Translations under genes and position numbers: made by a program
Assembly: GCA_964451495.1 (NCBI GenBank)
Contig: CAYVHS010000003.1
Coordinates: forward strand, 24,826 to 88,825
Length of the DNA stretch: 64,000 nucleotides
Direction: 5' to 3'
Source: an uncultured Bdellovibrionales bacterium
GTDB taxonomy: Bacteria; Patescibacteriota; Minisyncoccia; Moranbacterales; UBA1568
Notes under the pieces: model-generated
Told to the model about the DNA's origin: nothing
The model's input: only the letters and a program-made list of their open reading frames with translations
Databases searched by the model: none
Shown here: one piece after another, positions 1,107 to 27,262 of the stretch
Layout: each line of letters opens with the position of its first letter
How positions within the stretch are numbered: the stretch's first letter is position 1

Positions 1107-3167
1107 CTAAGAGTCCGTAGACCGGAAAGGAAAGGAAATGAAAAATTTTGTACCAACATTTTCTTCGCTTTCAAACCACACTCGCGCACCCGCTTCTTCT
1201 AGATATGATTTTACCACGGAAAGCCCGAGACCACTACCGCTTGTGTCCTTACGAACAGCATTGGAAGAACGGAAAAATTTAGAAAATATCTTCGATTGAT
1301 CTTCTTTCGGAATACCTATGCCTTTATCAGCAATTGTCACCAAGACAGCCTTATCTGTCGTCTCTACGGTAATAATCACCTGTCCATCTTTTTTGTTGTA
1401 TTTGATACTATTTGCTATGAGATTCTCAAATGATTCATACAAATGTTTCGGAGGAACCATGATGGCAGCAATTGACTCTTTCGGAATATTGAGCACGATC
1501 TCGACAGACCGCTGCTCGGCCTCCGCCGACATCACCTTGATGATCTCCTGTAGAGTATATATCACATCTGTCGGCTTCTTCTCCTCTTTTCCTCTATTTT
1601 GATCAATACGAGAAACGTCCAAGAGGTCATTTACAAGAGCGACCATACGCAAGCTATTGTCATAAATCTGGCTGACTACCTGTACGGCTTCTTTGGGAAG
1701 CTTGCCGAGGTCCCCATTTAAAAGAAGTTCCATACTCCAGCGCATGCTACCAAGTGGCGTCCGCAACTGATGCGCGGCGACAGAAAGAAAGCTATCCTTC
1801 ATCTGGTCCAGCTCATGCTTTTTTGTTATGTCTTGGAAAACCGTAATAGTTCCAATAATTACATCTGATGCATCACGAATGAGAGAGCAAGTTCCAGATA
1901 CGGGAATCTTTTTATCGCCATGAATCAGGAAGGTTTTGTCAGAAAAAATACTCGCCCGTTTCTTCTTCAAAGTTTGGTCGACAAGGAAAACTCGTTGTTC
2001 ATCCGCTACAGTTTCCTGAACAAAAGAAAAGGCTTCTTTGGATAATTGATACTCAACGTCCTGAAACATTTTTCCCGATAAGACCTCGGCTGATTCATTC
2101 ATAAAAATAATCTTGCCATCAATATCAGTCGCAAACACGCCTTCACCGATAGACTTAAGGAAACGAAGGATGCTTTCTGCGCGGTTTTTTTGCTCCTCGA
2201 TACGTCCATTGGCGGCAAATAACTCGTCCGCATGTTGTATGATACGCCTCTGCACCGCCCGTTCCTCAGTGATATCCCGCTCGATCCCGACGAAGAATTT
2301 GACCTCACCCATATTGTCGAAAATCGGCGAAATACGGATATTTGCGAGATAGGTCTTTCCATCTTTCCTCTTATTCGTGAGCTCACCGGTATATCGCAGT
2401 TTTTCGACCTTAATGGTTTTCCACAGTGTTTCATAAAATGATTTGGGCATCTGCCCGCCCCACAGGGATGGTCGGAGTCCAATCATCTCCTCTTTCGAAT
2501 ACCCCGTCAATACTTCCGCGGCATGATTCGCATGCAAAATGATGCCGTGGGAATCCGTAATAATCGTATGATCGAAACTGGCGTCAACAGCTTGCTGAAA
2601 CTTCGTCAAATCTTCGGTCTTCCTTTCCAATTGCTTCGCCGATGCGCCGACATCATCAAGAATATTGAGAATAGCCGCTTTTGACCTTTCCCCTTCGACA
2701 ATTTTTTCATGCAACTCTTTCGTATGAGTTGTAATTTCATTTTCGAGGTCAGTAGTGTATTGATTGAGGTATCCGACCATGTCATTAAAAGATCGGGCTA
2801 TATCGCCAATCTCATCCGCTGAACTAATATCTGTCCTCACTGTAAAATCGCCACCCTTTATTTTCAAGGCGAAATCGCGAAGCTCCCGCAAGAGCCTTAT
2901 AACCGACCCTCCAAAAACATATCCGACTATACCAGCCAACAGACTGATACATCCAACAAGAGACCAGAATCCCACCAGGGCCATTCGTAACTGAGCGTCA
3001 GTCAAAGGTACTAAAAACTTTTCTTGAAATATCAAAACCAAGGCGGTGGTCGATAGAACGACAACAACTATGACCATCTCAATAACCAAAATGACTTTGC
3101 CTCGTAATCCTAATTTCATACTTCCCTCTAAATATCTACTTAGCCTCCATAGGTACGTTATGTTCAC
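1107..3167 (-). CDS. Sensor histidine kinase (TM - HAMP-like - 2x PAS - HisKA - HATPase_c)
   Basis: 686 aa. N-terminal TM segments, PAS-like blocks, an H-box AAHQLRTPLGSM, and a C-terminal G-box region SGSGLGLSVVKSYLEEAGARVWFESEENVGTKF. Confidence 0.85.
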   Translation of the reverse strand: MNITYLWRLSRYLEGSMKLGLRGKVILVIEMVIVVVVLSTTALVLIFQEKFLVPLTDAQLRMALVGFWSLVGCISLLAGIVGYVFGGSVIRLLRELRDFALKIKGGDFTVRTDISSADEIGDIARSFNDMVGYLNQYTTDLENEITTHTKELHEKIVEGERSKAAILNILDDVGASAKQLERKTEDLTKFQQAVDASFDHTIITDSHGIILHANHAAEVLTGYSKEEMIGLRPSLWGGQMPKSFYETLWKTIKVEKLRYTGELTNKRKDGKTYLANIRISPIFDNMGEVKFFVGIERDITEERAVQRRIIQHADELFAANGRIEEQKNRAESILRFLKSIGEGVFATDIDGKIIFMNESAEVLSGKMFQDVEYQLSKEAFSFVQETVADEQRVFLVDQTLKKKRASIFSDKTFLIHGDKKIPVSGTCSLIRDASDVIIGTITVFQDITKKHELDQMKDSFLSVAAHQLRTPLGSMRWSMELLLNGDLGKLPKEAVQVVSQIYDNSLRMVALVNDLLDVSRIDQNRGKEEKKPTDVIYTLQEIIKVMSAEAEQRSVEIVLNIPKESIAAIMVPPKHLYESFENLIANSIKYNKKDGQVIITVETTDKAVLVTIADKGIGIPKEDQSKIFSKFFRSSNAVRKDTSGSGLGLSVVKSYLEEAGARVWFESEENVGTKFFISFPFRSTDS

Positions 3168-4708
3168 TCAACCGTTCCTGTAATTTCAGATTCTGCTTCT
3201 TTAATTCAATCATTCTCAGCTCACGATCTATCATAATCTTGTTAATTTTTTCAATCTGATCAATATACTTCTGTTTCTTTTCTTCTACCAACTTGATTTC
3301 CGTGATATCGAGACAAGAACACAAGTAACCGAGGAAAGTACCTTCTGGGGAATAATGAGGAACGTTCTGCGAAAATACCCACACATATACACCATCAACA
3401 CGACGCAAACGGTATTCGCTTTTGTATGACTCATGCTTATTAAATGCCTCTTCGAATGCCCGTCGCTGACCTTTGGCATCATCTGGATGAATACTTTCCA
3501 TCCATCCCATACTCAATTGATTTTCCAGTGTCTGCCCCGTAAAATCGAGCCAAACTTTATTGAAATAAATACACTTCTTTTCCTCATCCATCACCCAAAT
3601 CATAACTGGTGCCGAATCGGCGATTGCATAGAACAATTTCTCACTTTCACGTTTCTTCGCTTCCATGTCTCGCAATGAGATGAGCATCGCATCGATACGA
3701 TTGGCGAGGCGAGAGAATTCGTCCTTTCCCGGTAGTGTAATCCGCGATTGATGTCCCGTCTCTTTACTAACTCTCTCGACCGATTCCCCAAGAGAAAAAA
3801 GTCTCCGCAATACCAGCACTTCAAAAAGACCCAGTATGACGATAACAATAAGTATGCCCACTCCGAGCAATATCTTTGTAAAAAATGCAATACTATCCTG
3901 ACCCCGTTGATAAATCGCTCGATCAAATTCTACTCGCATAACAAGAGTCTTCCCCCCATCCATATCATCCTTGATGGTATACCCTGAAACAGTCGTATCA
4001 CTTTCGCTTCTCTCTGCAATGAAAACAGTCTGGTCCTCCCCTATATACCGAGCAGCAGCAAAAGATGGGTACTGCGCAATCTCACGAAAGGGCCTCATAG
4101 TTACTGCGAAATGCGTCAGATTGGCGATTTTTGATGCCATTTCATCATCGACAAAAGTAGCAAACATGATTGTCCCTGCGCTTGGAGAGAGTCCATCGCT
4201 TGAAGTAATACTGTGAGTCACATTAATAATCACTCCATCAGAAAGAGCAATGATGCCCGAATGAGCATCCTCTCCCTCGTCATGTACCGTAAGCGCGGGA
4301 TGTGTCTGTATATAATTTTCGAAACTCTCCGAAAAAACGACTTCTTTCCCTGATCCATCGATCTGCTTCTTAAACAGAATGTCACCATTCAAATCGATAA
4401 TAACTATAAACTGTATATGGAGAAGCTCGAGCGAGATATCTTGGAGATTCACATCAATATAACTCTGATTGTGATCCTGCGCGAAAATATACGTATCGTC
4501 CCACTGTCCCCAGTCAGAAATCTTTACCGAGAGACTGTCAATCTCGTTTTGGAGGGCATCAGAAACGCGCGTCACATTCTCCTCAGCCACCTGTCGCTCT
4601 AAATCACGATAATCACTCCTCAGAACACGCGAGAGTACACCGTAGACGACGAAAAACAATATGGAAAGAATTCCAACAACAGAAAAAAGTACCTTGATGC
4701 GAAGATTC
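3136..4708 (-). CDS. Membrane PAS-domain sensor protein without a kinase domain; C-terminal coiled coil ends in a RELRMIELKK motif
   Basis: ORF 3136..4794 trimmed to ATG at 4708 (MNLRIKVLFSVVGILSILFFVV...). A TM helix, a large extracytoplasmic region, a second TM, then a PAS block (KKCIYFNKVWLDFTG...HPDD...YRLRRVDGVYVWV) and the coiled-coil tail ...IMIDRELRMIELKKQNLKLQERLSEH. It overlaps the histidine-kinase gene by 32 nt. The start codon choice is uncertain because no strong RBS is present. Confidence 0.6.
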
Positions 4709-4819
4709 ATAGTATTTTTATGTGTTTTACTTTCCCTACTCTCCTTGGCATACAGGACGAACGACATAATTATATCACAGAACCAGAAACACACTGATCA
4801 AGAGTCCGAAGCTCAGCCC

Positions 4820-4847
4820 TTAACCCTGACACACTTTATGCTATAAT
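4820..4847 (+). promoter_or_regulatory. Candidate sigma70-type promoter (TTAACC - 16/17 nt - TGcTATAAT extended -10) for the plus-strand small-ORF/symporter unit
   Basis: An extended -10 'TGcTATAAT' at 4839..4847 with a weak -35 at 4820..4825, about 70 nt upstream of the 4915 ATG. Confidence 0.35.
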
Positions 4848-5112: not shown

Positions 5113-7252
5113 CACTATTGTACTCACTGTAGCATTGATATATTTCATCGCGCTCTTTGCTATCGCGCTCTTCGTGGAAAAAAAGAGTAGCAAAGGATTT
5201 CTTTTCACCCACAACTCTATTATTTATACGCTCACCCTGGGAATATACGCGACCGCATGGACATTTTATGGATCGATTGGCTCTGCAGCAAGCTCGAGCT
5301 TTCTCTTCCTTAGTGTGTATATCGGTCCAACACTCATGATGATTTTGGCTTATGCGATGCTTAAACGACTTGTCCAGATTAAAAGCAAATATGGCATAAC
5401 GAGTATTGCAGGCTACCTTTCCAATCGTTACGGAAAATCACAGGCGGTCGGGGTGATAGCCACACTTATCGCCCTCATCGGAGGCGTCCCTTACTTTGCG
5501 CTCCAAATCAAAGCCGTAGTGTCTTCATATACCTTTATCACCATCGGTACAACGACCGCGGTACATGGCTCTATCGAACTCCTTATCCTTTTCACCATTA
5601 TTATTTTTACCATTTTCTTTGGTTTTCGCACGCTCAGCCAAGATGAGACACATTCCGGACTCGTAATGGTTGTGGCAATACAGTCAATCGTGAAACTGAT
5701 AGCACTAGTCGGAGTCGGATTACTTGCCGTCTATTTTGTCTTCCATGGATTCGGAGACATTTTCGATACCGTTCGACAAAATGCCGACCTCCTCGAAAAA
5801 ATTAATAAATCAAAACCCTCCTATTCACTCTTCCTCTCATACTTCATCCTCTCGATGGGCGCTATCGTCCTTCTGCCACACATGTTTCATGTCATGATTG
5901 TGGAAAATACCTCAGAAAAACACATTCGAAGCAGCGTATGGATGCTCCCTATCTATCTTATCGCAATGACCATCTTTACCTTTCCTATCGCCATGGTAGG
6001 CATACTTCTCACAAAAGACGTTACGCTCACGGATATATTTACCCTGGCTATACCAGCAATACGGGGAAATGCTTGGCTCACACTCCTCGTCTTTATCGGC
6101 GGACTTTCTGCCGCATTTAGCATGATTATGATCTCGACCATTGCCATTACCACCATGGTGACCAATCATCTCGTGATTCCCATTATCAACTCAATCAAAC
6201 CGCTTACATGGATACAAAAGTTTATCCTTCAAATTCGCTGGCTCATTGTCACTCTCATCCTCGGCATCGCCTATCTTTTCGTCATTTCTATCGGGGATTC
6301 ATATATTCTCGTCCAAATAGGCATTATATCTTTCGCTGCGGCATTTCAATTCGGACCCGCTCTTATCGGCGGAATTTTTTGGCAACGAGGGAGTCGTATC
6401 GGCGCATTGGTCGGTCTGTGGAGCGGATTTGCAGTCTGGATATATACATCACTCGTCCCTGCCTTTGTACGAAGCGGTTGGATAGGACAATCTCTGCTCG
6501 ATAATGGCCCCCTAGGCATAAGCTTCCTTCGACCAGAAAATCTTTTTGGTATCACTACGATTCACCCCCTCGCAGTCACGGTACTCTTCTCTCTTCTCCT
6601 CAATGCCGGCCTCTACATCATATGCTCATACTTCTATCCCAATAATGAGACCGAACAAAAAATCGCCGATGATTTCGTTCATATTCTCGAAGAAAAGGCT
6701 TTCACTCTCGAAAACGCAGGCTACCAGAAATCGACCATACTAGTTGCACATAAAAAAGAAATTATTCAGAACATATTCAAAACGTATTTGAGCAAAGATG
6801 AAGCCCCTAGACAAGCACAAGATTGCCTGCGAGAGCTCAATCTCGATAGCGCTGAAACAATGACGCTGAGCCAACTCATACAACTGAACCGCGTGATAGA
6901 GAAAAGGATTGCTAGCTTCGTCGGCACCCCAACCGCGAGTACCATCCTCTCTCAAAACAGCCTTTTTAGCGAGAATGAGAACGCGCAACTCTCAGATATG
7001 TATACGAGGATTGCGACAGACCTAAAAATCACCCCTGAAGAATTCACACAAAAAATAAATTATTTCCTCGACAAAGAAAAAATTCTCATCGATGGAAGCA
7101 AAGCGCTGGAAGAAAAAGTGAAAGAACGCACCATGAAACTCGAAGAAGCTAACAATCAACTACAAGAATTCAATACGCTGATGGTTGGACGTGAACTCAA
7201 AATGATTGAGCTCAAGAAAGAAATCGATGATTTGAAGGCTCAAAAACAATAA
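5102..7252 (+). CDS. Solute:sodium symporter (SSS) family membrane domain fused to a ~230-aa cytoplasmic tail with an S-helix-like coiled coil; no kinase domain
   Basis: ORF 5063..7252 trimmed to ATG 5102 (MIPSTIVLTV...). About 13 TM helices follow, with SSS-like composition (GSIGSAASSSFLFLSVYIGPTLMM...). The C-terminus reads ...KVKERTMKLEEANNQLQEFNTLMVGRELKMIELKKEIDDLKAQKQ, where ERT..L..AN..LQ is an S-helix-type motif. Confidence 0.75.
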   Translation: MIPSTIVLTVALIYFIALFAIALFVEKKSSKGFLFTHNSIIYTLTLGIYATAWTFYGSIGSAASSSFLFLSVYIGPTLMMILAYAMLKRLVQIKSKYGITSIAGYLSNRYGKSQAVGVIATLIALIGGVPYFALQIKAVVSSYTFITIGTTTAVHGSIELLILFTIIIFTIFFGFRTLSQDETHSGLVMVVAIQSIVKLIALVGVGLLAVYFVFHGFGDIFDTVRQNADLLEKINKSKPSYSLFLSYFILSMGAIVLLPHMFHVMIVENTSEKHIRSSVWMLPIYLIAMTIFTFPIAMVGILLTKDVTLTDIFTLAIPAIRGNAWLTLLVFIGGLSAAFSMIMISTIAITTMVTNHLVIPIINSIKPLTWIQKFILQIRWLIVTLILGIAYLFVISIGDSYILVQIGIISFAAAFQFGPALIGGIFWQRGSRIGALVGLWSGFAVWIYTSLVPAFVRSGWIGQSLLDNGPLGISFLRPENLFGITTIHPLAVTVLFSLLLNAGLYIICSYFYPNNETEQKIADDFVHILEEKAFTLENAGYQKSTILVAHKKEIIQNIFKTYLSKDEAPRQAQDCLRELNLDSAETMTLSQLIQLNRVIEKRIASFVGTPTASTILSQNSLFSENENAQLSDMYTRIATDLKITPEEFTQKINYFLDKEKILIDGSKALEEKVKERTMKLEEANNQLQEFNTLMVGRELKMIELKKEIDDLKAQKQ

Positions 7253-7294: not shown

Positions 7295-7894
7295 CTATTT
7301 CCCAAGAATCACCGTGATAGGAGAAGCAGTGGTTTCTTTATTGCCTGGTAACGCTGCTTTTATAGTCACGTTTGGATATTTTTTTATTAGGGCTTCCTTG
7401 ATGATAACTGCTGGTTGTTCTAGTCCCGTGGCATAATACACTGCTACACCAACATAATCACCCGTCGCGTTGCCAGCAACGGATTTACTATAGCCTTCTT
7501 TTTTCAGAAGGTCAGTCACAACGGCTGCGCTTCCTTTGATGGCACCTCCATTGAGGACACTTATAGCCATTGCCTTAAGCTTTACTATGGTTTCATCTTG
7601 CGACGCATTCGTAGCTGTATCAGGCTCTTGTTTCTCTTCGGTCATCTCCGAACTCTCTACGCTATCCGGTGTTTTTTCTCCATTTTTTTCTTGTTCAGTA
7701 ACGAGCGCCACGATAGAGGGGCGCGCAGACTCTTGTTTGCTCATCTGCCACTTGGTATATGCCACAAACCCCACTCCGACGATTGAAGTAATGGTGCACA
7801 CAATCAACGCTACAAACAGAAGCGTTCCAAAAACAGACTCTTTCGAACGTTTTTTCTCTGGAATTTTTTCAGCAGGATTCTCTGTATTTTTCAT
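7295..7894 (-). CDS. LytR_C (LytR/CpsA/Psr C-terminal) domain membrane-anchored protein
   Basis: 199 aa. An N-terminal TM anchor is followed by VKLKAMAISVLNGGAIKGSAAVVTDLLKKEGY...TIKAAL, typical of the LytR C-terminal domain. Confidence 0.6.
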   Translation of the reverse strand: MKNTENPAEKIPEKKRSKESVFGTLLFVALIVCTITSIVGVGFVAYTKWQMSKQESARPSIVALVTEQEKNGEKTPDSVESSEMTEEKQEPDTATNASQDETIVKLKAMAISVLNGGAIKGSAAVVTDLLKKEGYSKSVAGNATGDYVGVAVYYATGLEQPAVIIKEALIKKYPNVTIKAALPGNKETTASPITVILGK

Positions 7895-20418: not shown

Positions 20419-22287
20419 ATGTTCAGAGAAATACCTCAAAATGTCGTTCGTCCAGAAAAAAGCCGAGATGAACTTCGGTCATTTCTTTCGGAGCGAACCA
20501 GAAAGGATTACGAAAAGACAGTTGGCCATGAAATGGCTCCGAAAGATTTCAATGTATGGGTCGTGCAGACCGAAGCGACACGGTCTCAATCTTTACATTC
20601 CGCTGATGCTCTCACCAAAGAATTTCAATTATCACTGAGTACAAATCAACAAACACTTTCTGACAATCGGGATGTGGCAGTCTCCATAGTCCCCCAAGAT
20701 GAACTTCGACATGCGCTTCCCAATGCTTTCCCGGGCTATGGTGAAGTAACCCCCAATCTTCTGCCGGACCTCGTTATCGTTTCTGGCGACGTCGGCTATC
20801 ATGACACACAGCCTGAGAGCAGTTTGACTCGTGCGTATATTAACTTTGAGATGCAGGCTATTCGTGATATCCGCCATGCCGCAGACGCAACACTTCACCA
20901 TTTCTTTCCGACCGGAGAAAAACTCACGAGCGACTGGGATCAAGAATTCCTCCAAGCACACGTCCTCGGAAAAAACTATCATGAGCTTTTTCTGAGAAAA
21001 CATGAGATTACCGAAGAAATCGCCCTCGAACTTATCGCCAGCTCGCTTTTCAATGACACCGATTACGAGTGGGAAATTTCCGGCCGAGCATTTGATACCT
21101 ATGCTCGCACCAATGATGAACACTCCCTCAGAAAAATCACCACTGACGGACGCATCCGGAAAGCGGTCAAGCAGATGCGGAGATCTTTCGTTTTGACACA
21201 CCTGGTCGAACAATATCGATCAGAAAAGAAAAAGGAATCAGGCTCAGGAGAATTTCAAAACGAGGAAGAGTATATCGCCTATGTACAAGCGCTGGTCCGA
21301 AAAACCGAGTCCACCGCAAAAGACATTGACCCCGAACAATTACAGACCGCGGTCTATGCCTCGCTGAAAAAATTGATCGATGCAAAAAAACAAGACTATC
21401 TCACGGATGTCGAAAGCGAAACCATGGAAGAGCGGCTCTTGCAGCCAATCATCGTCTCTGTCGGAAAAAGCAAGAAATACCAGGAAGCATCATTCGAAGC
21501 TGGCGCCGACGCCGTCCTTCCCGAACTCACCCCTGCAGGTATGAAAAAGGTAGTGGAGCTCGCAAAGCGTATTCGCACCAGCCCCGCCTCCATGGCGACC
21601 GAACGCCTCCGCAGAAACAAATCCGAATTCTATCATTCGGTCGTCGACCAGATCGAAGATCGATCCAAAGAGACTGCTGATACTGAAAAGGAATTGGGAA
21701 TCCTCTCATCGCTCTTCAAGAAAATTGACGCAAAAACGATCCTCGATGTCGGCTGTGGATACGGTCGTCTCGCCAAACCCTTGGCCAAAGAGGGTTTTGA
21801 TGTGACCGGCATCGATGCGAGTCAAGCGCTCCTCACGAAAGCAAAAGAAATGAAAGGGAAAACAAAAAATCTCCACTACGCCAAGGGAGATATTATCGAC
21901 TACACAGGTTCCGTTCCGAAAGAAAGTTTTGATGCTGTGTATTATGGTTGGCATTCTTTCCTCGAAGCATACGGGCTCGGCAATGCCCTTGCCTCCCTTC
22001 GATCAGCGCGCCACGCGTTGAAACCAAACGGTGTCATCACCTTTGACCAACCAGCACGCACCAACCCTGAACTGGAAGAGGGATGGTATGGCGACGCGGA
22101 ACACGGCTACCTCGCCTATCTCATGGATGAAGAGGAATTGAAATTCATGCTTCGTCTCGCGGGCTTTGAAGACGTACATATTCTTCACTGGACCACCAAG
22201 CCCAGTACCCTCTACCCCGAGGGCATGCAGAAAATATCGGTCGCCGCCCGAAAACCATCAATGCTGAAAATTAAAGAAGGATCTTGA
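20419..22287 (+). CDS. Large fusion protein: ~400-aa uncharacterised N-terminal region plus C-terminal class-I SAM-dependent methyltransferase domain
   Basis: 622 aa. The C-terminus has ILDVGCGYGRLAKPLAKEGFDVTGIDASQALL (motif I, GxGxG), DAVYYGWHSF and LKPNGVITF. The N-terminal 400 aa carry no motif I recognise. The gene looks GC-richer than the surrounding chromosome. Confidence 0.7.
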   Translation: MFREIPQNVVRPEKSRDELRSFLSERTRKDYEKTVGHEMAPKDFNVWVVQTEATRSQSLHSADALTKEFQLSLSTNQQTLSDNRDVAVSIVPQDELRHALPNAFPGYGEVTPNLLPDLVIVSGDVGYHDTQPESSLTRAYINFEMQAIRDIRHAADATLHHFFPTGEKLTSDWDQEFLQAHVLGKNYHELFLRKHEITEEIALELIASSLFNDTDYEWEISGRAFDTYARTNDEHSLRKITTDGRIRKAVKQMRRSFVLTHLVEQYRSEKKKESGSGEFQNEEEYIAYVQALVRKTESTAKDIDPEQLQTAVYASLKKLIDAKKQDYLTDVESETMEERLLQPIIVSVGKSKKYQEASFEAGADAVLPELTPAGMKKVVELAKRIRTSPASMATERLRRNKSEFYHSVVDQIEDRSKETADTEKELGILSSLFKKIDAKTILDVGCGYGRLAKPLAKEGFDVTGIDASQALLTKAKEMKGKTKNLHYAKGDIIDYTGSVPKESFDAVYYGWHSFLEAYGLGNALASLRSARHALKPNGVITFDQPARTNPELEEGWYGDAEHGYLAYLMDEEELKFMLRLAGFEDVHILHWTTKPSTLYPEGMQKISVAARKPSMLKIKEGS

Positions 22288-22315
22288 ATCCCCTCTTCCT
22301 TTTCCAAAAGACAGG

Positions 22316-22349
22316 CCAAAAAAATGAGTCTTACCATTATAGTAAGACT
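22316..22349 (-). terminator. Intrinsic terminator (perfect 9-bp stem GAGTCTTAC/GTAAGACTC), effective on the minus strand
   Basis: ccaaaaaaatgagtcttaccattatagtaagactca. The A-run on plus equals a T-run after the hairpin on minus. Confidence 0.55.
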
Positions 22350-22366
22350 CAGATACTTCACCAGCA

Positions 22367-22756
22367 TCACTCCGGACTTTTCAACAAAGCCATCGACTCA
22401 TTGATCTGGCTTTCAAGTACTCGCATTGCTTCGAGACCTCTGGTCAATTCATCGAGATGCGGACGTACCTGCTCACGCAGACAATGCTCGCCCTCGCGAA
22501 TTCCTGCTTGAAATCCGGCCAAGAAGAATTTGGCAAACATACCACGATACAATCGCGTCGAGGCAGGTCGAGTTTCAAACTTTTCCATCTCAGTCATTCC
22601 AAATGCCATGGGAAATATTCCGAGAAGCATCTCGCCTTCGCGGCAAAGTTGACGCACTTCATCTTCTTCGGATACCGTTGCAAAACACCGAACACCTTCC
22701 CTGGTAGCGCTGTCCACGACGACAGCAAAACTAAAAGCAATCGGTACATCTTTCAT
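22367..22756 (-). CDS. Small hypothetical protein (first gene of the leader-repeat cluster)
   Basis: ORF 22367..22804 trimmed to ATG 22756 (MKDVPIAFSF...), preceded by GGAGA. Leader-repeat copy 1 lies directly upstream. Confidence 0.45.
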   Translation of the reverse strand: MKDVPIAFSFAVVVDSATREGVRCFATVSEEDEVRQLCREGEMLLGIFPMAFGMTEMEKFETRPASTRLYRGMFAKFFLAGFQAGIREGEHCLREQVRPHLDELTRGLEAMRVLESQINESMALLKSPE

Positions 22757-22810
22757 GATTCTCTCCTCTGGTTGGTAAAAAACTTTTTCGATCCGAACAT
22801 TCACGATATC

Positions 22811-22884
22811 ATTTCCCTTTCACAAACTTCTTATACAAGAAATTTCTGAAAGGGAGGCGAGAGGAAATGATATTCCATCTCGCC
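22811..22884 (-). repeat. Leader-repeat copy 1: conserved two-hairpin element 5' of a minus-strand gene
   Basis: atttccctttcacaaacttcttatacaagaaatttctgaaagggaggcgagaggaaatgatattccatctcgcc. Hairpin A = CCCTTTCACAAACTTCTT / AAGAAATTTCTGAAAGGG (18-bp stem with 2 mismatches). Hairpin B = GGCGAGA...TCTCGCC. Confidence 0.7.
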
Positions 22885-23187
22885 AATAGAGTGGCTCTTT
22901 GCCGAATGTGCCCAGAATAGCAACACATCCGGCATAACATTGTGGTTCCCACAACGCTCTCCTCGGGTTTTTGTTAGCACTTCCCCAAACAGAGTCATTC
23001 ACCCACTTTAAGATCCTCAAAATATTTGAGGAGTCAAAGTAAGTGTTTGTTCATCACCACGTGTGCATCACAACGTTTCCGCTATGTGCCTCTCAACGCA
23101 GACGAACTCCCGAGGATGTGATCAAGCACCCCCTCATGCACCGGTACTACATCATTCAATAATGCTAACCCGGCATATCTCAAACTC

Positions 23188-23382
23188 TCAATAGAACCGC
23201 GGACACCCCCTATCTTTGGAAAGAAAATGCTTGATTCTCCTATGAACCGACTGAAGCTCCCCGCTCTTGAACGGCTTCCCCATCAAAATCGAGAATCTTC
23301 CAGCCGTTCCGGCATTTCCATGCCGGGTCCACACAACGATTCTCCGTCCTCGTACCGTGAGGCTCTTGTAGATATCTGGCAT
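23188..23382 (-). CDS. Small basic hypothetical protein (65 aa)
   Basis: ORF trimmed to ATG 23382 (MPDIYKSLTVRGRR...), preceded by GAGGAGAGAGAA. The longer ORF-track version begins inside the repeat at a GTG. Confidence 0.35.
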   Translation of the reverse strand: MPDIYKSLTVRGRRIVVWTRHGNAGTAGRFSILMGKPFKSGELQSVHRRIKHFLSKDRGCPRFY

Positions 23383-23390
23383 TTCTCTCT

Positions 23391-23523
23391 CCTCGTATAG
23401 ATACGGCGAAATTGCCGCGACGGTTTTCTCAAAGAACATCGGGAACCATTTCCCTTTCACAAACTTCTTACGTAAGAAATTTCTGAAAGGGAGGCGAGAG
23501 AGGAAATATTATTCCGTCTCGCC
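23391..23523 (-). repeat. Leader-repeat copy 2 (long form, shares an extra ~50-bp 5'-proximal block with copy 4)
   Basis: ...gatacggcgaaattgccgcgacggttttctcaaagaacatcgggaaccatttccctttcacaaacttcttacgtaagaaatttctgaaagggaggcgagagaggaaatattattccgtctcgcc. The same two hairpins are present; the hairpin-A loop differs (acgtaag). Confidence 0.7.
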
Positions 23524-23533
23524 AAAAACTACT

Positions 23534-23998
23534 TCACGATTTGTTTACAATGTCGAGGAGCCGACCCAGAACGACTGGCCAATCTTTCACCCACGCGCCG
23601 TCAATCTCTTTCATCGGCGCATACATGAAGCATACGCGATGACCATTGATGTTGATTTCCTTACCGATAAGCCAATCCATCATGGCACAGGCCGGGTGAT
23701 GGTGATGATTGGTATCGGTCGCCACTGCGACTCGGATCCCCTCTGTCGCGAGATATACTGCGAGCGGATATCCGACCGCGAATGCCTCGCCGAGGTGATT
23801 CATCCCCTCACCGCCGAGCATCATCTCTTCGGCTGGCATCAGGAGATCGATCAGTGCGACATCGAACGACTCCTGCTGCACAGCCATCGCGACATCCGAA
23901 TAATCTCGAAGAACGATGACTTCATGCCCAAGAGCTGTGAGATCAGCGAGGCCAGTCTGGCAATGTCGCTTTGAGTCGTCCACCAAAAGAATCTTCAT
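23534..23998 (-). CDS. Divergent receiver (REC)-like protein with TDTNHHHHP motif
   Basis: ORF trimmed to ATG 23998 (RBS GAGGAGG). MKILLVDDSKRH...FDVALIDLLMPAEEMMLGGEG...RVAVATDTNHHHHPACAMMDW...KDWPVVLGRLL. DD, the D in LIDLLMP and a T before the His run map onto receiver-fold positions. Confidence 0.55.
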   Translation of the reverse strand: MKILLVDDSKRHCQTGLADLTALGHEVIVLRDYSDVAMAVQQESFDVALIDLLMPAEEMMLGGEGMNHLGEAFAVGYPLAVYLATEGIRVAVATDTNHHHHPACAMMDWLIGKEININGHRVCFMYAPMKEIDGAWVKDWPVVLGRLLDIVNKS

Positions 23999-24378
23999 TT
24001 CATTTCCTCCTCTACGTTGAGCAAAAAGAATACGATGTTCTGTTCTCCTGAACCTTCTACGAGCGGTCGAGTATACACACGACCAGCAAACGCTTTCGCG
24101 AGTGAGCTCGCGCCCAATCGAGTCGACTCCCCCTGCCATCCTGGCATAATCGCAATGAGCACCTTCGTCTCATCACCATCCTTCAGAAAGCGGAGTGCCT
24201 GGGACGTATCGTCCGTCAGCAGAAGCTCGGCCTCATCCGACGAATTCACAATCTGAATCATGGAATTCATTTCCATGATCGCCTTCAGCGCGATCTCGAT
24301 CGGATTCTTCAGCACGATCTCAATCGGATTGGTCGAACGACGCTCCGAACCCCCTATACTCACAAAAATCTTCATCAT
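23995..24378 (-). CDS. Small hypothetical protein with an in-frame 24-bp tandem duplication; translationally coupled to the downstream REC-like gene
   Basis: 127 aa (MMKIFVSIGG...NPIEIVLKNPIEIALKAI...). Its stop TGA overlaps the next gene's ATG (ATGA at 23995..23998). RBS AAGGAG. Confidence 0.5.
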   Translation of the reverse strand: MMKIFVSIGGSERRSTNPIEIVLKNPIEIALKAIMEMNSMIQIVNSSDEAELLLTDDTSQALRFLKDGDETKVLIAIMPGWQGESTRLGASSLAKAFAGRVYTRPLVEGSGEQNIVFFLLNVEEEMK

Positions 24379-24403
24379 CTACTCCTTTGTCAAATGAACT
24401 CAA

Positions 24404-24481
24404 GGGAAATCCCCTTTCACAAACTTCTTACATAAGAAATTTCTGAAAGGGAGGCGAGAGGAAATGATATTCCGTCTCGCC
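24404..24481 (-). repeat. Leader-repeat copy 3
   Basis: gggaaatcccctttcacaaacttcttacataagaaatttctgaaagggaggcgagaggaaatgatattccgtctcgcc. Confidence 0.7.
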
Positions 24482-24488
24482 ATGAACG

Positions 24489-24887
24489 CTACTCCTGAAG
24501 CTTGGCGATGATCGCGGCGAATTGCTCCGGCTTTTTGTTAGTCAATTCCGGCTCCATCGGCTCCACCACACCAGCTGCCTCGAAGTTTTTCAACCCCGAA
24601 GATGAGTGCGAATAGATTGGGCCAATGTAGCCAAATGACCGGAGAACCGAGACAATCAGAGCGCCCGTGATTCCCTGCGGGATCGGGTACTCCGCATCGT
24701 CAAACTGCCAATCGACAAAGATCGCGTCCGGCGTGATTTCAAGTGCTTGCTCGACTGCTTGCGAGACACTGTCGATCTGCCAAACAATATTCACTTCGTG
24801 GGCAGTCGGATCGAAACCGCATTGTCTTGCTAAAAACAACATAATATCGACTTCGCCTTTTTGATCATCGATTATTGCGATTTTCAT
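24489..24887 (-). CDS. Small divergent REC-like/unknown protein
   Basis: ORF trimmed to ATG 24887 (RBS AAGGAGAGAG). MKIAIIDDQKGEV...PDAIFVDWQF...IYSHSS gives a weak receiver-fold pattern. Confidence 0.45.
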   Translation of the reverse strand: MKIAIIDDQKGEVDIMLFLARQCGFDPTAHEVNIVWQIDSVSQAVEQALEITPDAIFVDWQFDDAEYPIPQGITGALIVSVLRSFGYIGPIYSHSSSGLKNFEAAGVVEPMEPELTNKKPEQFAAIIAKLQE

Positions 24888-24992
24888 TTCTCTCTCCTTG
24901 ATTAAAAGAACTTCATCTCGATGAAAATTCAAACTATTTTGAATCCTCAATAGAGAGGAGAAGCGGTGTGTTCACGACTTCTCCGAATTACC

Positions 24993-25373
24993 TTACTCCA
25001 ACCTTTTGGCAAGCAGCTCGCGCAAGACGAGGGTCGGACAACTCTCGAGGACGCCTTCCCAATCTGGGATATCCATCCAAGAGTCGCCATCGTCGCCAGA
25101 GTCGAAGTGGTAAAGGAATGTAAGTGAGATTTTCCCGTCCCTGATCAGATTCCTCATCAATGTCATGAAGATCATGTGGGACTTCTCATCACTATTGTAG
25201 TCACACTCTTCAAATGCTTCCCATTCTTCTTCGTATCCTTCCACCTTGAACGTTACGCCCTCCCGAGACCATTCTAGATCCTTCCCAAAACAGAAGTGCA
25301 GAATGTCTTTACCGACTTCCAACACAACACTGGCTGGGATGAAAGCTACATATTGATTGTATGAGGTGCTCAT
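24993..25373 (-). CDS. Small acidic hypothetical protein
   Basis: ORF trimmed to ATG 25373 (MSTSYNQYVAF...), RBS AAGGAGAGAGAA. Leader-repeat copy 4 lies immediately upstream. Confidence 0.45.
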   Translation of the reverse strand: MSTSYNQYVAFIPASVVLEVGKDILHFCFGKDLEWSREGVTFKVEGYEEEWEAFEECDYNSDEKSHMIFMTLMRNLIRDGKISLTFLYHFDSGDDGDSWMDIPDWEGVLESCPTLVLRELLAKRLE

Positions 25374-25387
25374 TTCTCTCTCCTTTG

Positions 25388-25520
25388 GTAGATACGGCGA
25401 AATTGCCACGACGGTTTTGTCAAAGAACTAGGGAAACTATTTCCCTTTCACAAACTTCTTGCGTAAGAAATTTCTGAAAAGGAGGTGTGTACAGTAACTG
25501 CCTGTACACACCAAACCATT
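25388..25520 (-). repeat. Leader-repeat copy 4 (long form); hairpin B replaced by a covarying perfect 11-bp stem
   Basis: gtagatacggcgaaattgccacgacggttttgtcaaagaactagggaaactatttccctttcacaaacttcttgcgtaagaaatttctgaaaaggaggtgtgtacagtaactgcctgtacacacc. Hairpin A is conserved. Hairpin B is GGTGTGTACAG/CTGTACACACC instead of GGCGAGA/TCTCGCC. Confidence 0.7.
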
Positions 25521-25575
25521 AAAGAACAACTCAAGGACTAGGGTAGAAAAATTCTTCTACCCCAGCCGAGAAACA

Positions 25576-26247
25576 TTACTCGGCTTCTTCTTCTGGGTTG
25601 AGGAGCCGGCCCAAAATCTTGAGCCAGTCCTTGCCCTTAGAACGGAAGTCAGTCCCAGAGCCTTTGCAGGGCCAACAATTGGCCGTCAGCCCGTTTATAT
25701 TTCTTTTTCCGGCCCCATTACACTCCGCACACGGCCCCTCAGTTCCGACAATACCAACCTTTTGAACACTGTTGGTCATGAGCACCTGAGCGCCGTCGAT
25801 AGAGAAGACATGCCCGTCGAAAGCATCAAGCATGGCCGACGCGGGGTGATGATGGTGATTCATATCCGTCACCACCGCCACATGTTTTGCACCCATTTTT
25901 GCTGCATGAAGTGCAAGCGACCAGCCAACCGCCATTTCCTGACCGACATACTTCCTCCCTGCACCGCCTTGAGACATGGAACCAGCGGGCATCAGGAGGT
26001 CTGTGAGAACTACGTCCCAGTAGGGAAGTTCAGACTCATCTCGTGCCTTAATGTATGCCTCCCGAGCTTTCATTCCATCCCGCTCGTACTGCTCTTCGAG
26101 GGCCTTCCGATTGGGGGCGTACTGCGTACCAAGCAGCTGATATGCCTCATCATGGCTCGAGCAAACGGTAAGGTCATGCTCTTTGCCCAGGAGCTGAATC
26201 GCTGCATCAAGATGGACTTGCGTGTCGTCGATGACAAGAACCTTCAT
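25576..26247 (-). CDS. Divergent REC-like protein with TDMNHHHHP motif and a C-terminal DnaJ-type CxxCxGxG zinc-ribbon insert
   Basis: ORF trimmed to ATG 26247 (MKVLVIDDTQVHL...DVVLTDLLMPAGSMSQGGAG...HVAVVTDMNHHHHPASAMLDAF...CAECNGAGKRNINGLTANCWPCKGSG...KDWLKILGRLL). It is a paralog of 23534..23998. Confidence 0.55.
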   Translation of the reverse strand: MKVLVIDDTQVHLDAAIQLLGKEHDLTVCSSHDEAYQLLGTQYAPNRKALEEQYERDGMKAREAYIKARDESELPYWDVVLTDLLMPAGSMSQGGAGRKYVGQEMAVGWSLALHAAKMGAKHVAVVTDMNHHHHPASAMLDAFDGHVFSIDGAQVLMTNSVQKVGIVGTEGPCAECNGAGKRNINGLTANCWPCKGSGTDFRSKGKDWLKILGRLLNPEEEAE

Positions 26248-26306
26248 TTTCTTCTCCAACCCCAGTGCCCGAGGTGCGGTTGCCAGTATTGGCAGATTTC
26301 TCAAAG

Positions 26307-26320
26307 AACTTGTACAAGTT
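26307..26320. promoter_or_regulatory. Perfect 14-bp palindrome AACTTGTACAAGTT in the divergent region between the REC-like cluster and the TrmB-family regulator (operator candidate)
   Basis: tctcaaagaacttgtacaagttgttttg. The upstream half, tctcaaagaac, also occurs in the long leader repeats 2 and 4. Confidence 0.35.
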
Positions 26321-26452
26321 GTTTTGTGTCTCTGCTCTTCAACTTGACTGCGTAGTATACCTTGTTTTGAGTAAAGTGTCAATAATAAGGTCAATATATC
26401 GTCAATAGTAAACGCGATACGAACCGAGTACTTTCATTTTTTGGCTTTATTA

Positions 26453-26481
26453 TTGACTTTTATTTCATTTTCTGATATACT
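26453..26481 (+). promoter_or_regulatory. Candidate sigma70 promoter for the TrmB-family gene: TTGACT - 17 nt - TATACT
   Basis: ttattgacttttatttcattttctgatatactcat. Ideal 17-nt spacing, 50 nt upstream of ATG 26531. Confidence 0.45.
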
Positions 26482-26530
26482 CATATTATCGACCTTTTTA
26501 CCGACATATTTAAAATATCACTGAAAAAAC

Positions 26531-27262
26531 ATGCTTTTTCAAGACTTACAGCAATTTGGATTGAGCGAAAAGGAGGCTCGGGTCTATATGGCCCTGCTTG
26601 AGATTGGCGAAGCCTCTGTGGGACACATAACCCAGAAATCCGGCGTAAAACGCACCACCGTCTATGATGTAATAGAAGATTTGAAAGCATCCGGCCTCGT
26701 CGGTATGATAAAAAAAGAAAAGAAGACCCTGTATTTCGCCGAAGACCCCCGCTCTCTCGAAGGAAAGCTCGAAGAAAAAAAGGAAAGCCTAAAACGAATG
26801 CTTCCCGAACTCCTTTCTATTGCCAACTTCCTTGATAAAAAGCCAAAAATTCGATTTTACGAAGGCAAGGAAGGTATCAAGGAGGTGTACAAAGATACGC
26901 TCCAATATCCCGATCAAGAACTCCTGGCTTGGGTAGCGGAAGAAGCTATCGAGGCATTCGACGAGGCATTTCTCAACGCATACTATCTCCCCCGTCGTGT
27001 GGAAAAAAAGATTTGGGTCCGCGCTATCGCCCCCGATGTCCCACTCATGCAGCAGTATAAGGGTCAAGATGTCCCCTCGCTCCGGAAAACCCGTCTCATC
27101 GATGCCAAGCGCTTCCCCCTCGATGCCGAAATCAATCTCTACGGGAGAAACAAAATCGCCATCATGTCCTTTTCCGAACAGACCAGCCTCATCATCGAGA
27201 GCGAAAAAATATTTCGTACTCTCAAAAGTATTTTCGAGTGCCAATGGGAAAGCCTGGCATAA
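26531..27262 (+). CDS. TrmB-family transcriptional regulator
   Basis: 243 aa. LQQFGLSEKEARVYMALLEIGEASVGHITQKSGVKRTTVYDVIEDLKASGLV is the TrmB N-terminal wHTH, with a C-terminal sensing domain. Confidence 0.75.
   Translation: MLFQDLQQFGLSEKEARVYMALLEIGEASVGHITQKSGVKRTTVYDVIEDLKASGLVGMIKKEKKTLYFAEDPRSLEGKLEEKKESLKRMLPELLSIANFLDKKPKIRFYEGKEGIKEVYKDTLQYPDQELLAWVAEEAIEAFDEAFLNAYYLPRRVEKKIWVRAIAPDVPLMQQYKGQDVPSLRKTRLIDAKRFPLDAEINLYGRNKIAIMSFSEQTSLIIESEKIFRTLKSIFECQWESLA

Follow-up and report, generated by a model that had tools for sequence, protein, structure and literature searches.

A conserved multi-hairpin RNA structure predicted at the cistron junctions of a Patescibacteria operon

What role might be played by a long imperfect hairpin that recurs, in one orientation only, between the small genes of a bacterial cluster? 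This question is raised by seven small minus-strand genes (26382 to 22325) in a 64-kb stretch of contig CAYVHS010000003.1, which was analysed as a whole (hereafter the window) and in which the element-bearing genes and all element copies are read on the minus strand. An earlier reading of the same letters (hereafter the original prediction) had described four copies of a two-hairpin element and viewed each as the 5' leader of the gene behind it. The comparative sequence analysis presented here demonstrates a conserved sense-strand multi-hairpin RNA structure at the cistron junctions of one predicted operon, and this element probably governs the cutting, stabilising or read-through of a long transcript.

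A 37-nt core (CCCTTTCACAAACTTCTT-N4-AAGAAATTTCTGAAA) was counted in the window and in 100 shuffles of it, and was found exactly four times in the former (at 22815, 23452, 24412 and 25443, all in one orientation) and in none of the latter. A repeat search of the window likewise returned one 71-nt family with four copies, so the number of copies first reported was borne out, and copies 2 and 4 were found to have a common 115-nt repeat with 89% identity. A fifth, diverged copy, overlooked at first, was detected at 24916-24984 between the genes 24993-25373 and 24489-24887 (z = -3.27), comprising an A-like hairpin and a directly abutting B hairpin with 0 nt of spacer, followed by GTTCTTTTA. Along the minus strand, the order is upstream stop codon, hairpin B, hairpin A (0 spacer), often hairpin C, then GTTCTTTGA or a close variant, the ribosome-binding site (RBS) and ATG. 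Hairpin B begins 7-10 nt after the stop codon in copies 2 and 3, the gap between A and the RBS of copy 3 measures only 26 nt, and the downstream starts given by the original prediction (22756, 23382, 24378 and 25373, each with an RBS) proved correct. The copies are as follows.

Element copy 1, 22814-22884, minus strand: hairpin B at 22856-22884 and hairpin A at 22814-22855, with no clear C hairpin.
Element copy 2, 23429-23523, minus strand: B at 23493-23523, A at 23451-23492, C at 23441-23454 and GTTCTTTGA at 23429-23437.
Element copy 3, 24390-24481, minus strand: B at 24453-24481, A at 24411-24452, C at 24402-24416 and GTTCATTTGA at 24390-24399.
Element copy 4, 25420-25512, minus strand: B at 25484-25512, A at 25442-25483, C at 25430-25446 and GTTCTTTGA at 25420-25428.
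Element copy 5, 24903-24984, minus strand: B at 24957-24984 (GGAGAAG...CTTCTCC), A at 24916-24956 and GTTCTTTTA at 24903-24911.

Hairpin A has a stem of 18-19 bp and a variable tetraloop (GUAU, ACGU, AUGU, ACGC and others). The long stem had been recognised before; the loop is 4 nt rather than the 7 nt then proposed, since CTT and AAG pair, and the two mismatches described are, on the minus-strand RNA, one G.G mismatch and one U.G wobble. The base (CCCUUUCAG...CUGAAAGGG) is conserved, hardly any variation is seen in the nine lower pairs (UCCCUUUCA / UGAAAGGGA), and the upper stem varies by lineage. A covariation check on a larger set, as had been suggested, was run on 20 different A hairpins, which were anchored from the base and had their apical loops trimmed. 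Pairing was kept in 92.2% of cells compared with 82.7% after shuffling (0/500 shuffles as high), 8 of the 16 pairs had changed on both sides, and the covariation score was 0.347 vs 0.190 shuffled (0/500), with slid-partner controls reaching at most 0.18. Base-anchored counting was chosen because a MAFFT alignment of full elements misaligned hairpins of unequal length, and a covariance-model alignment (R1, A3) was left out of the pair counts because it mixed sense and antisense matches. The G.G mismatch of the window type is G-C or A-U in other lineages. Moreover, folding was stronger on the sense than on the antisense strand in 24 of 26 variants (e.g., -18.0 vs -3.2 and -21.9 vs -8.7 kcal/mol), and the cells of A held 36 G.U compared with 9 A.C. 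This asymmetry and the G.U excess speak strongly against a double-stranded DNA operator, and point to hairpin A acting in the transcript or, less likely, in single-stranded sense DNA.

Hairpin B is GC-rich, was found in every copy with a predicted free energy of -10 to -21 kcal/mol, and ends 0 nt (rarely 1-2 nt) before A. Its stems were as first described (GGCGAGA...TCTCGCC in copies 1-3, GGTGTGTACAG...CTGTACACACC in copy 4), and at least 13 unrelated stem sequences were identified in the whole set (e.g., GGCGAGA, GGCGAGG, GGTGTGTACAG, GGCTACA, GGGCGACGC, GGCGAACAC, GGCGAGTATG, GGTGAAC, GGTAAGAA and GGGCAAACA), with loops that are UAUCAU, UAAUAU or unrelated. So many different stems of the same shape confirm and extend the argument from compensatory change, and selection on structure, as had been claimed, is upheld by both the covariation of A and the stems of B. 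No U-tract was found directly 3' of B, where the tail is UCCCUUUC, and copy 4 alone passed a lenient terminator scan; the earlier statement that neither hairpin is followed by a U-tract was thus nearly right, the exceptions in that scan being the B tail of copy 4 (TCCTTTTC) and the short C hairpins.

Hairpin C (GGGAA...UUCCC) occurs in window copies 2-4 and in roughly two-thirds of all copies, with an almost invariant stem that takes its 5' arm from the final GGGAA of A. One subtype carries an extra inner hairpin between GGG and CCC with compensatory changes (CCGUC/GACGG vs CCGCC/GGUGG). The fold in which A is shortened by 3-4 bp and C is formed lies only 1.8-6.3 kcal/mol above the full-A fold, and when the 5' arm of A is removed, C becomes the minimum-energy fold of the remaining 3' fragment.

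The overlap of the A 3' arm with the C 5' arm is the classical layout of an antiterminator and a terminator, and the elements might accordingly be viewed as intra-operon attenuators: C with its U-rich GUUCUUUG tail (or B with its CU-rich tail) would be a weak terminator, A would be the antiterminator sequestering the 5' arm of C, and a trans factor opening or blocking A would cause termination at the junctions and operon polarity. The two folds are only 2-6 kcal/mol apart, and C with its tail passed the terminator scan in three copies of the window and in the related loci L009 and L013 (8-bp stem). However, in most lineages C has a stem of just 5-6 bp, several copies lack it altogether, its stem is directly followed by GAU or GAA instead of U, and operon ends in these same genomes use long-stem terminators with T7-type tails, unlike B. 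Moreover, GUUCUUUGA is also present in first-gene leaders with no C-like hairpin before it (L015), and no upstream competitor of A exists, so the default would always be read-through. Attenuation is considered unlikely.

Three further observations concern the surroundings of these hairpins. The B/A junction carries a pyrimidine tract (CACCUCCUUUUC or CACCUCCCUUUC; e.g., 25476-25490 on the minus strand and the L013 copies) that is similar to the 3' anti-Shine-Dalgarno (anti-SD) tail of 16S rRNA, and the partner of this tract, GAAAGGGA, is SD-like. The CCUCC of this junction varies by lineage (CCUUCC, CCCCUC), and pairing of CACCUCCUUUUC with the downstream SD was dropped as a candidate since CCUCC is not kept in other lineages. 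About 11 of the 28 copies (copies 2 and 3 of the window; L001, L002, L003 and L016) have the tetranucleotide GTAG (often GTAGGYAGTTC) some 8-11 nt 5' of B, several times overlapping the stop codon. A mini-ORF (open reading frame) after A (AUG...UGA) was found only in copy 2 and L013, and is hence not conserved.

The original prediction had recognised no named RNA family in the element, and the scans agree with it: among the Rfam 15 covariance models, only two tRNAs matched in the whole window, with no element-related match at E <= 5 in 22300-26600 and none in 10 related loci. Full-text literature searches also found no description of the element.

To trace relatives, the exact core was searched for in 185,579 genomes (one genome per species), and was found in three assemblies labelled Patescibacteria, Moraniibacteriota and 'Bdellovibrionales', on one contig each and always in this cluster; the contig labelled 'Bdellovibrionales' may be mis-binned. 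The 154-aa receiver-like protein of the cluster had 115 homologue clusters, few with source names and these mostly Patescibacteria, and the DNA around some of the homologues revealed syntenic gene clusters. Searches with nhmmer and a covariance model matched the element only within these clusters and only on the gene strand, yielding about 28 instances in 10 loci from at least 8 lineages, each with genes of its own strand on both sides; the stop codon lies 29-92 nt ahead of A, and the start codon roughly 20-95 nt beyond A (a few script-called starts were corrected by eye). The element was absent from the more distant homologue loci L018, L022 and L023. A TrmB-family gene always adjoins the cluster. 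By these genome comparisons, the operon is specific to one group of Patescibacteria, and it comprises 5-7 small genes arranged around a conserved pair of receiver-like proteins. In the cluster of L020, a TROVE/Ro60-family gene (within 1956-4008) is followed by 370 non-coding nt holding a diverged B-A copy between GTTCTTTC and GTTCTTTGA; no Y-RNA match to this stretch was obtained in Rfam. A metagenome scan with the mismatch positions left free recovered only unrelated AT-rich perfect palindromes (L004-L008), and viral contigs scanned for the A base gave eight chance matches with no continuous stem and no B. A phage origin was rejected given these chance-only viral matches and an empty tblastn search of the receiver-like protein against phages.

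Could the element be a dispersed repeat? Repetitive extragenic palindromic (REP) sequences and bacterial interspersed mosaic elements (BIME), enterobacterial repetitive intergenic consensus (ERIC) sequences and Correia elements (Neisseria miniature insertion sequences, NEMIS) occur genome-wide in tens to hundreds of copies and in both orientations, some of them bounded by terminal inverted repeats or by duplications of the target; REPs have a GTAG at the 5' foot of the hairpin and go with a RAYT transposase. They have in common with the present element that they are repeated imperfect palindromes in transcribed intergenic regions, which fold in mRNA, alter its stability or processing and can promote rearrangements. 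By contrast, the element is confined to one operon, is sense only and is inherited at syntenic junctions across divergent lineages. The original prediction had also considered a REP-like or miniature inverted-repeat transposable element (MITE)-like repeat recruited as a leader, and had held that copies at random positions would speak for a generic repeat; the rest of the window and all locus flanks yielded no copy, so that the reported linkage to genes stands for every copy and the recruited repeat is not supported. A generic REP/MITE-like repeat, or as a variant a palindromic operator in double-stranded DNA that serves the adjacent TrmB-family regulator, would be in line with an imperfect palindrome in several copies, with the GTAG 5' of B, with GTTCTTT-like direct repeats on both sides of B-A-C in a small number of copies (copy 4 of the window, L015 ~1695 and L020 ~3840) and, for the operator, with the constant adjacency of the TrmB-family gene. 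Against this, confinement to the cluster and to the gene strand speaks for no dispersed REP or MITE, the left and right ends of the element have no shared inverted repeat, and several of the GTAGs overlap stop codons; the strand asymmetry of A would be unexpected for an operator, whose half-sites would be 18 bp long. Both versions are therefore regarded as highly improbable.

The transcriptional organisation of the cluster was examined next to its gene content. A scan for the sigma-70 consensus detected one promoter with 11/12 matches, divergent from the TrmB-family regulator gene, and a canonical intrinsic terminator at the other end, facing a convergent methyltransferase-domain gene. The only other minus-strand promoter-like match in the cluster is weak (9/12) and lies at 23162-23191. 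In L009, one sense promoter was located by the regulator gene and one canonical terminator at the end, with none between; L013 has a canonical terminator, and its sense promoter matches are two weak ones (9/12) inside coding sequence, with none scored by the regulator gene. One promoter and one terminator with none internal suggest that the cluster is a single polycistronic operon in which the elements are intercistronic. The features are listed below.

Sigma-70-type promoter, 26354-26382, minus strand: TTGACA-17-TATACT, 11/12 matches, divergent from the TrmB-family regulator gene.
TrmB-family regulator gene, 26531-27262, plus strand: divergent neighbour of the cluster.
Gene 1, 25576-26247, minus strand: 223 aa, receiver-like with a C-terminal zinc ribbon.
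Gene 2, 24993-25373, minus strand: 126 aa, no family found.
Gene 3, 24489-24887, minus strand: 132 aa, N-terminus judged receiver-like by eye (MKIAIIDD), without a database match.
Gene 4, 23995-24378, minus strand: 127 aa, overlapping gene 5 with no element between.
Gene 5, 23534-23998, minus strand: 154 aa, receiver-like, forming with gene 4 a conserved core pair.
Gene 6, 23188-23382, minus strand: 64 aa, no family found.
Gene 7, 22367-22756, minus strand: 129 aa, no family found.
Canonical intrinsic terminator, 22325-22351, minus strand: 12-bp stem followed by T7.
Methyltransferase-domain gene, 20419-22287, plus strand: 622 aa, convergent, faced by the cluster terminator.

This layout bears directly on the first explanation offered for the element, in which each copy would be the 5' leader (a thermometer, protein-binding leader or attenuator) of its own transcription unit, co-regulating a gene set. 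The copies do lie roughly 20-95 nt 5' of an RBS and start codon and are highly similar, as would be expected for a common regulator, and the scan covered promoters of the sigma-70 type. Conversely, a single strong sigma-70 promoter and a single canonical terminator serve the seven-gene cluster, no sigma-70 promoter was found in or upstream of any copy in the three genomes, and sequences like -35 and -10 are spaced 15 to 27 nt apart (read by eye). Hairpin B follows the upstream stop codon by 7-10 nt, which leaves no room for a promoter, and it travels with the upstream gene, so that only C, GTTCTTTGA and the leader go with the downstream one; the A-to-RBS distance in copy 3 is also short, and gene 1, which has the promoter, has a GUUCUUUGA leader but no B-A. 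Separate transcription units are thus quite improbable, and the assignment of the whole element to the downstream gene was not sustained.

Several promoter candidates were rejected. TTGTGA or TGAAAG as -35 with GTTC as -10 was discarded for its spacing of 15 to 27 nt, as were patterns like those of extracytoplasmic function (ECF) and SigH factors at the elements. The TTGACA inside GTTCTTTGACA was also set aside, because it abuts the RBS in copy 3 and because the motif lies about 50 nt downstream of the real gene 1 promoter. About 300 nt between gene 6 and copy 1 (22886-23187) are without a convincing gene, comprising short overlapping ORFs of no family and the site at 23162-23191; this stretch may be a decayed cassette.

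The seven cluster proteins were scanned against Pfam, NCBIfam and PADLOC, and only two had domain matches, both under curated cut-offs: a Response_reg match restricted to the N-terminal half of the 23534-23998 protein, and a zinc ribbon in the 25576-26247 protein. These weak half-receiver and zinc-ribbon matches did not point to any partner protein, and the scanned cluster proteins yielded no ANTAR domain. In all loci, the core pair consists of a gene for a 116-127-aa protein overlapping that of a 150-156-aa protein, never split by an element. In the larger protein, the N-terminal half is receiver-like (DD...D-x-x-MP) and a motif rich in His (TDTNHHHHP) is present; paralogues of this protein fused to a CxxC zinc ribbon are often first in the operon; no informative NCBIfam or PADLOC match was obtained for the pair. 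Elsewhere in the window, the ORFs are ordinary chromosomal genes (ABC transporter, RuvA, YebC, LemA and M48 peptidase), 10 of which were scanned for domains.

Downstream of the hairpins, GTTCTTTGA occurs exactly three times in the window compared with about 0.5 expected, in each case in a minus-strand leader of the cluster. Gene 1 alone has its own promoter, and its leader is composed of a 5' hairpin, GTTCTTTGA and an SD, without B-A; variants of GTTCTTTGA were also found in the first-gene leaders of L009, L016 and L015. The motif opens each cistron leader of the cluster, that of gene 1 included; it is thus part of the cistron leader rather than of the hairpin module, and it could be a cleavage site, a landing pad for the ribosome or S1, or a protein-binding site. 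The leader features are as follows.

GTTCTTTGA, exact sites: 26301-26309, 25420-25428 and 23429-23437, minus strand.
GTTCTTTGA, variant sites: 24903-24911, 25519-25527 and 24390-24399, minus strand.
Gene 1 leader, 26250-26309, minus strand: GTTCTTTGA at 26301-26309, then motif D (hairpin D1, then ACCGCACCTCGGGCACTGGGGTTGGAGA), with no B-A upstream.
Motif D: 26250-26296, minus strand, in the window; L001 ~5165-5235; L013 ~4770-4836 and 7455-7518.
Motif D, further sites: L015 ~340-396 and 2110-2166; L003 ~2385-2447.
Extra hairpin GGGGTAGAA...TTCTACCC plus GTTCTTTAA, 25519-25575, minus strand: between the gene 1 stop codon and B of copy 4.

Motif D is a second conserved leader motif, present in a subset of cistrons. 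It consists of a 5-bp hairpin, for which at least five different stems were identified, followed by ACCCGCNCCUCGGGG-N3-8-CUGGGG-N1-3-UGGAGA-ATG. Its predicted stem (CCG...UGG) includes the first SD bases and had no Rfam match, and it could act as a translational control element. As for the extra hairpin at 25519-25575, the GTTTCTTAA-plus-B arrangement recurs in L001 behind a different gene, and the segment is possibly the leftover leader of an emptied cassette whose gene was lost.

Comparison of close relatives revealed how the junctions change. In blastn comparisons of the window cluster with L001 (~85% identical), blocks of homology start or stop within hairpin A. The left half of copy 4 (25530-25439) resembles the left half of the third L001 copy, whose right half in turn resembles that of copy 1 in the window (22857-22761). 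Two extra genes are present in the window, located between the A hairpins of its copies 4 and 3; different genes follow the A hairpin downstream of a conserved receiver-like gene, and the gene 1 leader (26310-26242) reappears after another L001 copy. Because blocks end in A, B appears to move with the upstream gene and C plus the leader with the downstream gene, leaving A as the shared joint. Protein clustering revealed the conserved core pair amid lineage-specific cistrons, with accessory gene families that differ between loci. Copies within a genome also have common lineage-specific substitutions, as illustrated by three L009 copies with AGAGAUUUCUY, three identical L013 copies (two B hairpins included) and the alike copies 1-3 of the window. 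Judged from these alignments, element copies evolve in concert within each genome, and hairpin A is the crossover point of module exchange.

Such exchange is reminiscent of PeSL (promoter-early stem-loop) sequences, which are mobile regulatory cassettes with composite terminator/promoter motifs of T4-type phages (PMC2839356, PMC4122927). In both cases, a short conserved intergenic stem-loop motif recurs among small ORFs that lie on one strand of a hyperplastic region and have no known function, and indel or swap junctions between close relatives fall in the repeat, here in A. The present element differs in that no sense-strand -35/-10 pair spaced by 16-18 nt was found among the elements of the window, L009 and L013, and in that two or three adjacent hairpins with covariation and sense bias lie on a bacterial chromosome, with no phage match.

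A second comparison is provided by integrons, with which the cluster has in common an array of small promoterless same-strand ORFs behind one upstream promoter, a structured repeat of some 100 nt downstream of each, as well as repeats that are homogeneous per genome, strand-specific folding and variable cassette content. In attC sites, the inverse core sites R'' (RYYYAAC) and R' (GTTRRRY) pair and close a single bulged hairpin, and a tyrosine-recombinase gene (IntI) lies next to the array in an integron or elsewhere in the genome in a CALIN. Here, the 3' motif is GTTCTTT (YYYY, not RRRY), no AAAGAAC lies upstream of B, the hairpins are separate and adjacent, no integrase was seen nearby, crossovers fall in A and not in a GTT core, and the better-folding strand is the coding strand.

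Taken as primarily a DNA-level recombination element that marks cassette boundaries, the structure would be selected for the gain, loss and shuffling of cistrons, with any RNA effect secondary. The breakpoints in A between the window and L001, the highly variable accessory genes around a conserved core, the homogenised copies (three near-identical in L013, copies 1-3 alike in the window), a GTTCTTT-like motif at the 3' boundary and before the first cassette, and the PeSL precedent cited above are all compatible with this. Yet identical repeats of 40 nt recombine without any selected function, and the compensatory changes, the sense-strand G.U excess, the fixed post-stop placement and the zero-spacer B/A junction favour a function in the transcript. 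Furthermore, the attC hallmarks (inverse core sites, a single long bulged hairpin) are missing, crossovers do not fall at GTTCTTT, and no recombinase was found among the called genes of related loci or the scanned window ORFs. A role chiefly at the level of DNA is judged rather unlikely.

The reading preferred here, to which a probability of about 0.45 is assigned, is that A is a common processing helix. Under this model, A would be the common helix recognised or cleaved by an RNase III-type enzyme with specificity for double strands or for structure, and its cutting would split the long transcript into units of C hairpin, GUUCUUUGA, SD, ORF and B hairpin. B would shield the 3' end of the upstream unit, and C would form fully only after A opens, then capping the 5' end of the downstream unit. 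Being about 40 nt long and identical within a genome, A would double as the crossover point at which units are gained, lost or swapped. The model would account for the zero-spacer B/A junction and the A/C overlap, for the layout of gene 1 (5' hairpin, GUUCUUUGA, SD), and for the coincidence of the evolutionary modules with the predicted mRNA units. The 18-19 bp of A stack directly on B, which is compatible with an RNase III substrate of about two helical turns.

RNase III sites in phage T7 early mRNA and in rRNA operons are long imperfect hairpins between cistrons of one transcript. The present element is similar to them in being an intercistronic imperfect hairpin whose cleavage would be expected to leave the upstream RNA with a protective 3' hairpin, and its mid-stem internal mismatch recalls single-cut sites. 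It differs in that A is shorter, is flanked by B (the 3' cap) and a latent C (the 5' cap) and has no sequence similarity to those sites. ANTAR targets, composed of two short stems with hexaloops that have conserved A1 and G4 and overlap a terminator, were also considered: tandem hairpins upstream of genes are common to both, in a locus that encodes receiver-domain proteins, but A has a non-conserved tetraloop on its 18-19 bp stem, the B loops vary and no ANTAR domain was found in the cluster proteins.

Some points weigh against processing at A. Co-transcription itself, like the cleavage and the enzyme, is deduced from consensus scans, and the sense-strand asymmetry would also fit a structure in single-stranded sense DNA. 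A is about as small as RNase III substrates get, and no rnc gene was found among the window ORFs scanned (only 10). Copies 1 and 5 and the furthest relatives (L019) lack C, whose own covariation is weak because its stem is almost invariant. In addition, the strong conservation of the A base and of GUUCUUUGA is left unexplained by simple hairpin protection, and a binding factor may be involved. A related view, fairly improbable in our estimation, takes the locus as a punctuated cassette array, in which A would be the site of a specific endonuclease (on RNA) or recombinase (on single-stranded sense DNA), and each A-to-A unit would be both a processed mRNA and a unit of exchange.

Patescibacteria (Candidate Phyla Radiation, CPR) have tiny genomes, and almost no gene regulation has been studied experimentally in them. 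In this group, the element represents a well-supported conserved RNA structure that is absent from Rfam and undescribed, with the unusual traits of being confined to one operon, of lying at almost every cistron junction and of evolving in concert within each genome. Exchange at A documents a route for shuffling accessory genes in an otherwise conserved CPR operon of receiver-like proteins with a TrmB-family neighbour. If the cassette-array reading were true, whole genes in CPR would be handled by a logic like that of integrons or CRISPR arrays, with no known integrase or Cas6 taking part. If the processing model is true, the operon would provide a testable case of a minimal bacterium making several independently stabilised mRNAs from one promoter, and the element a ready-made natural insulator part.

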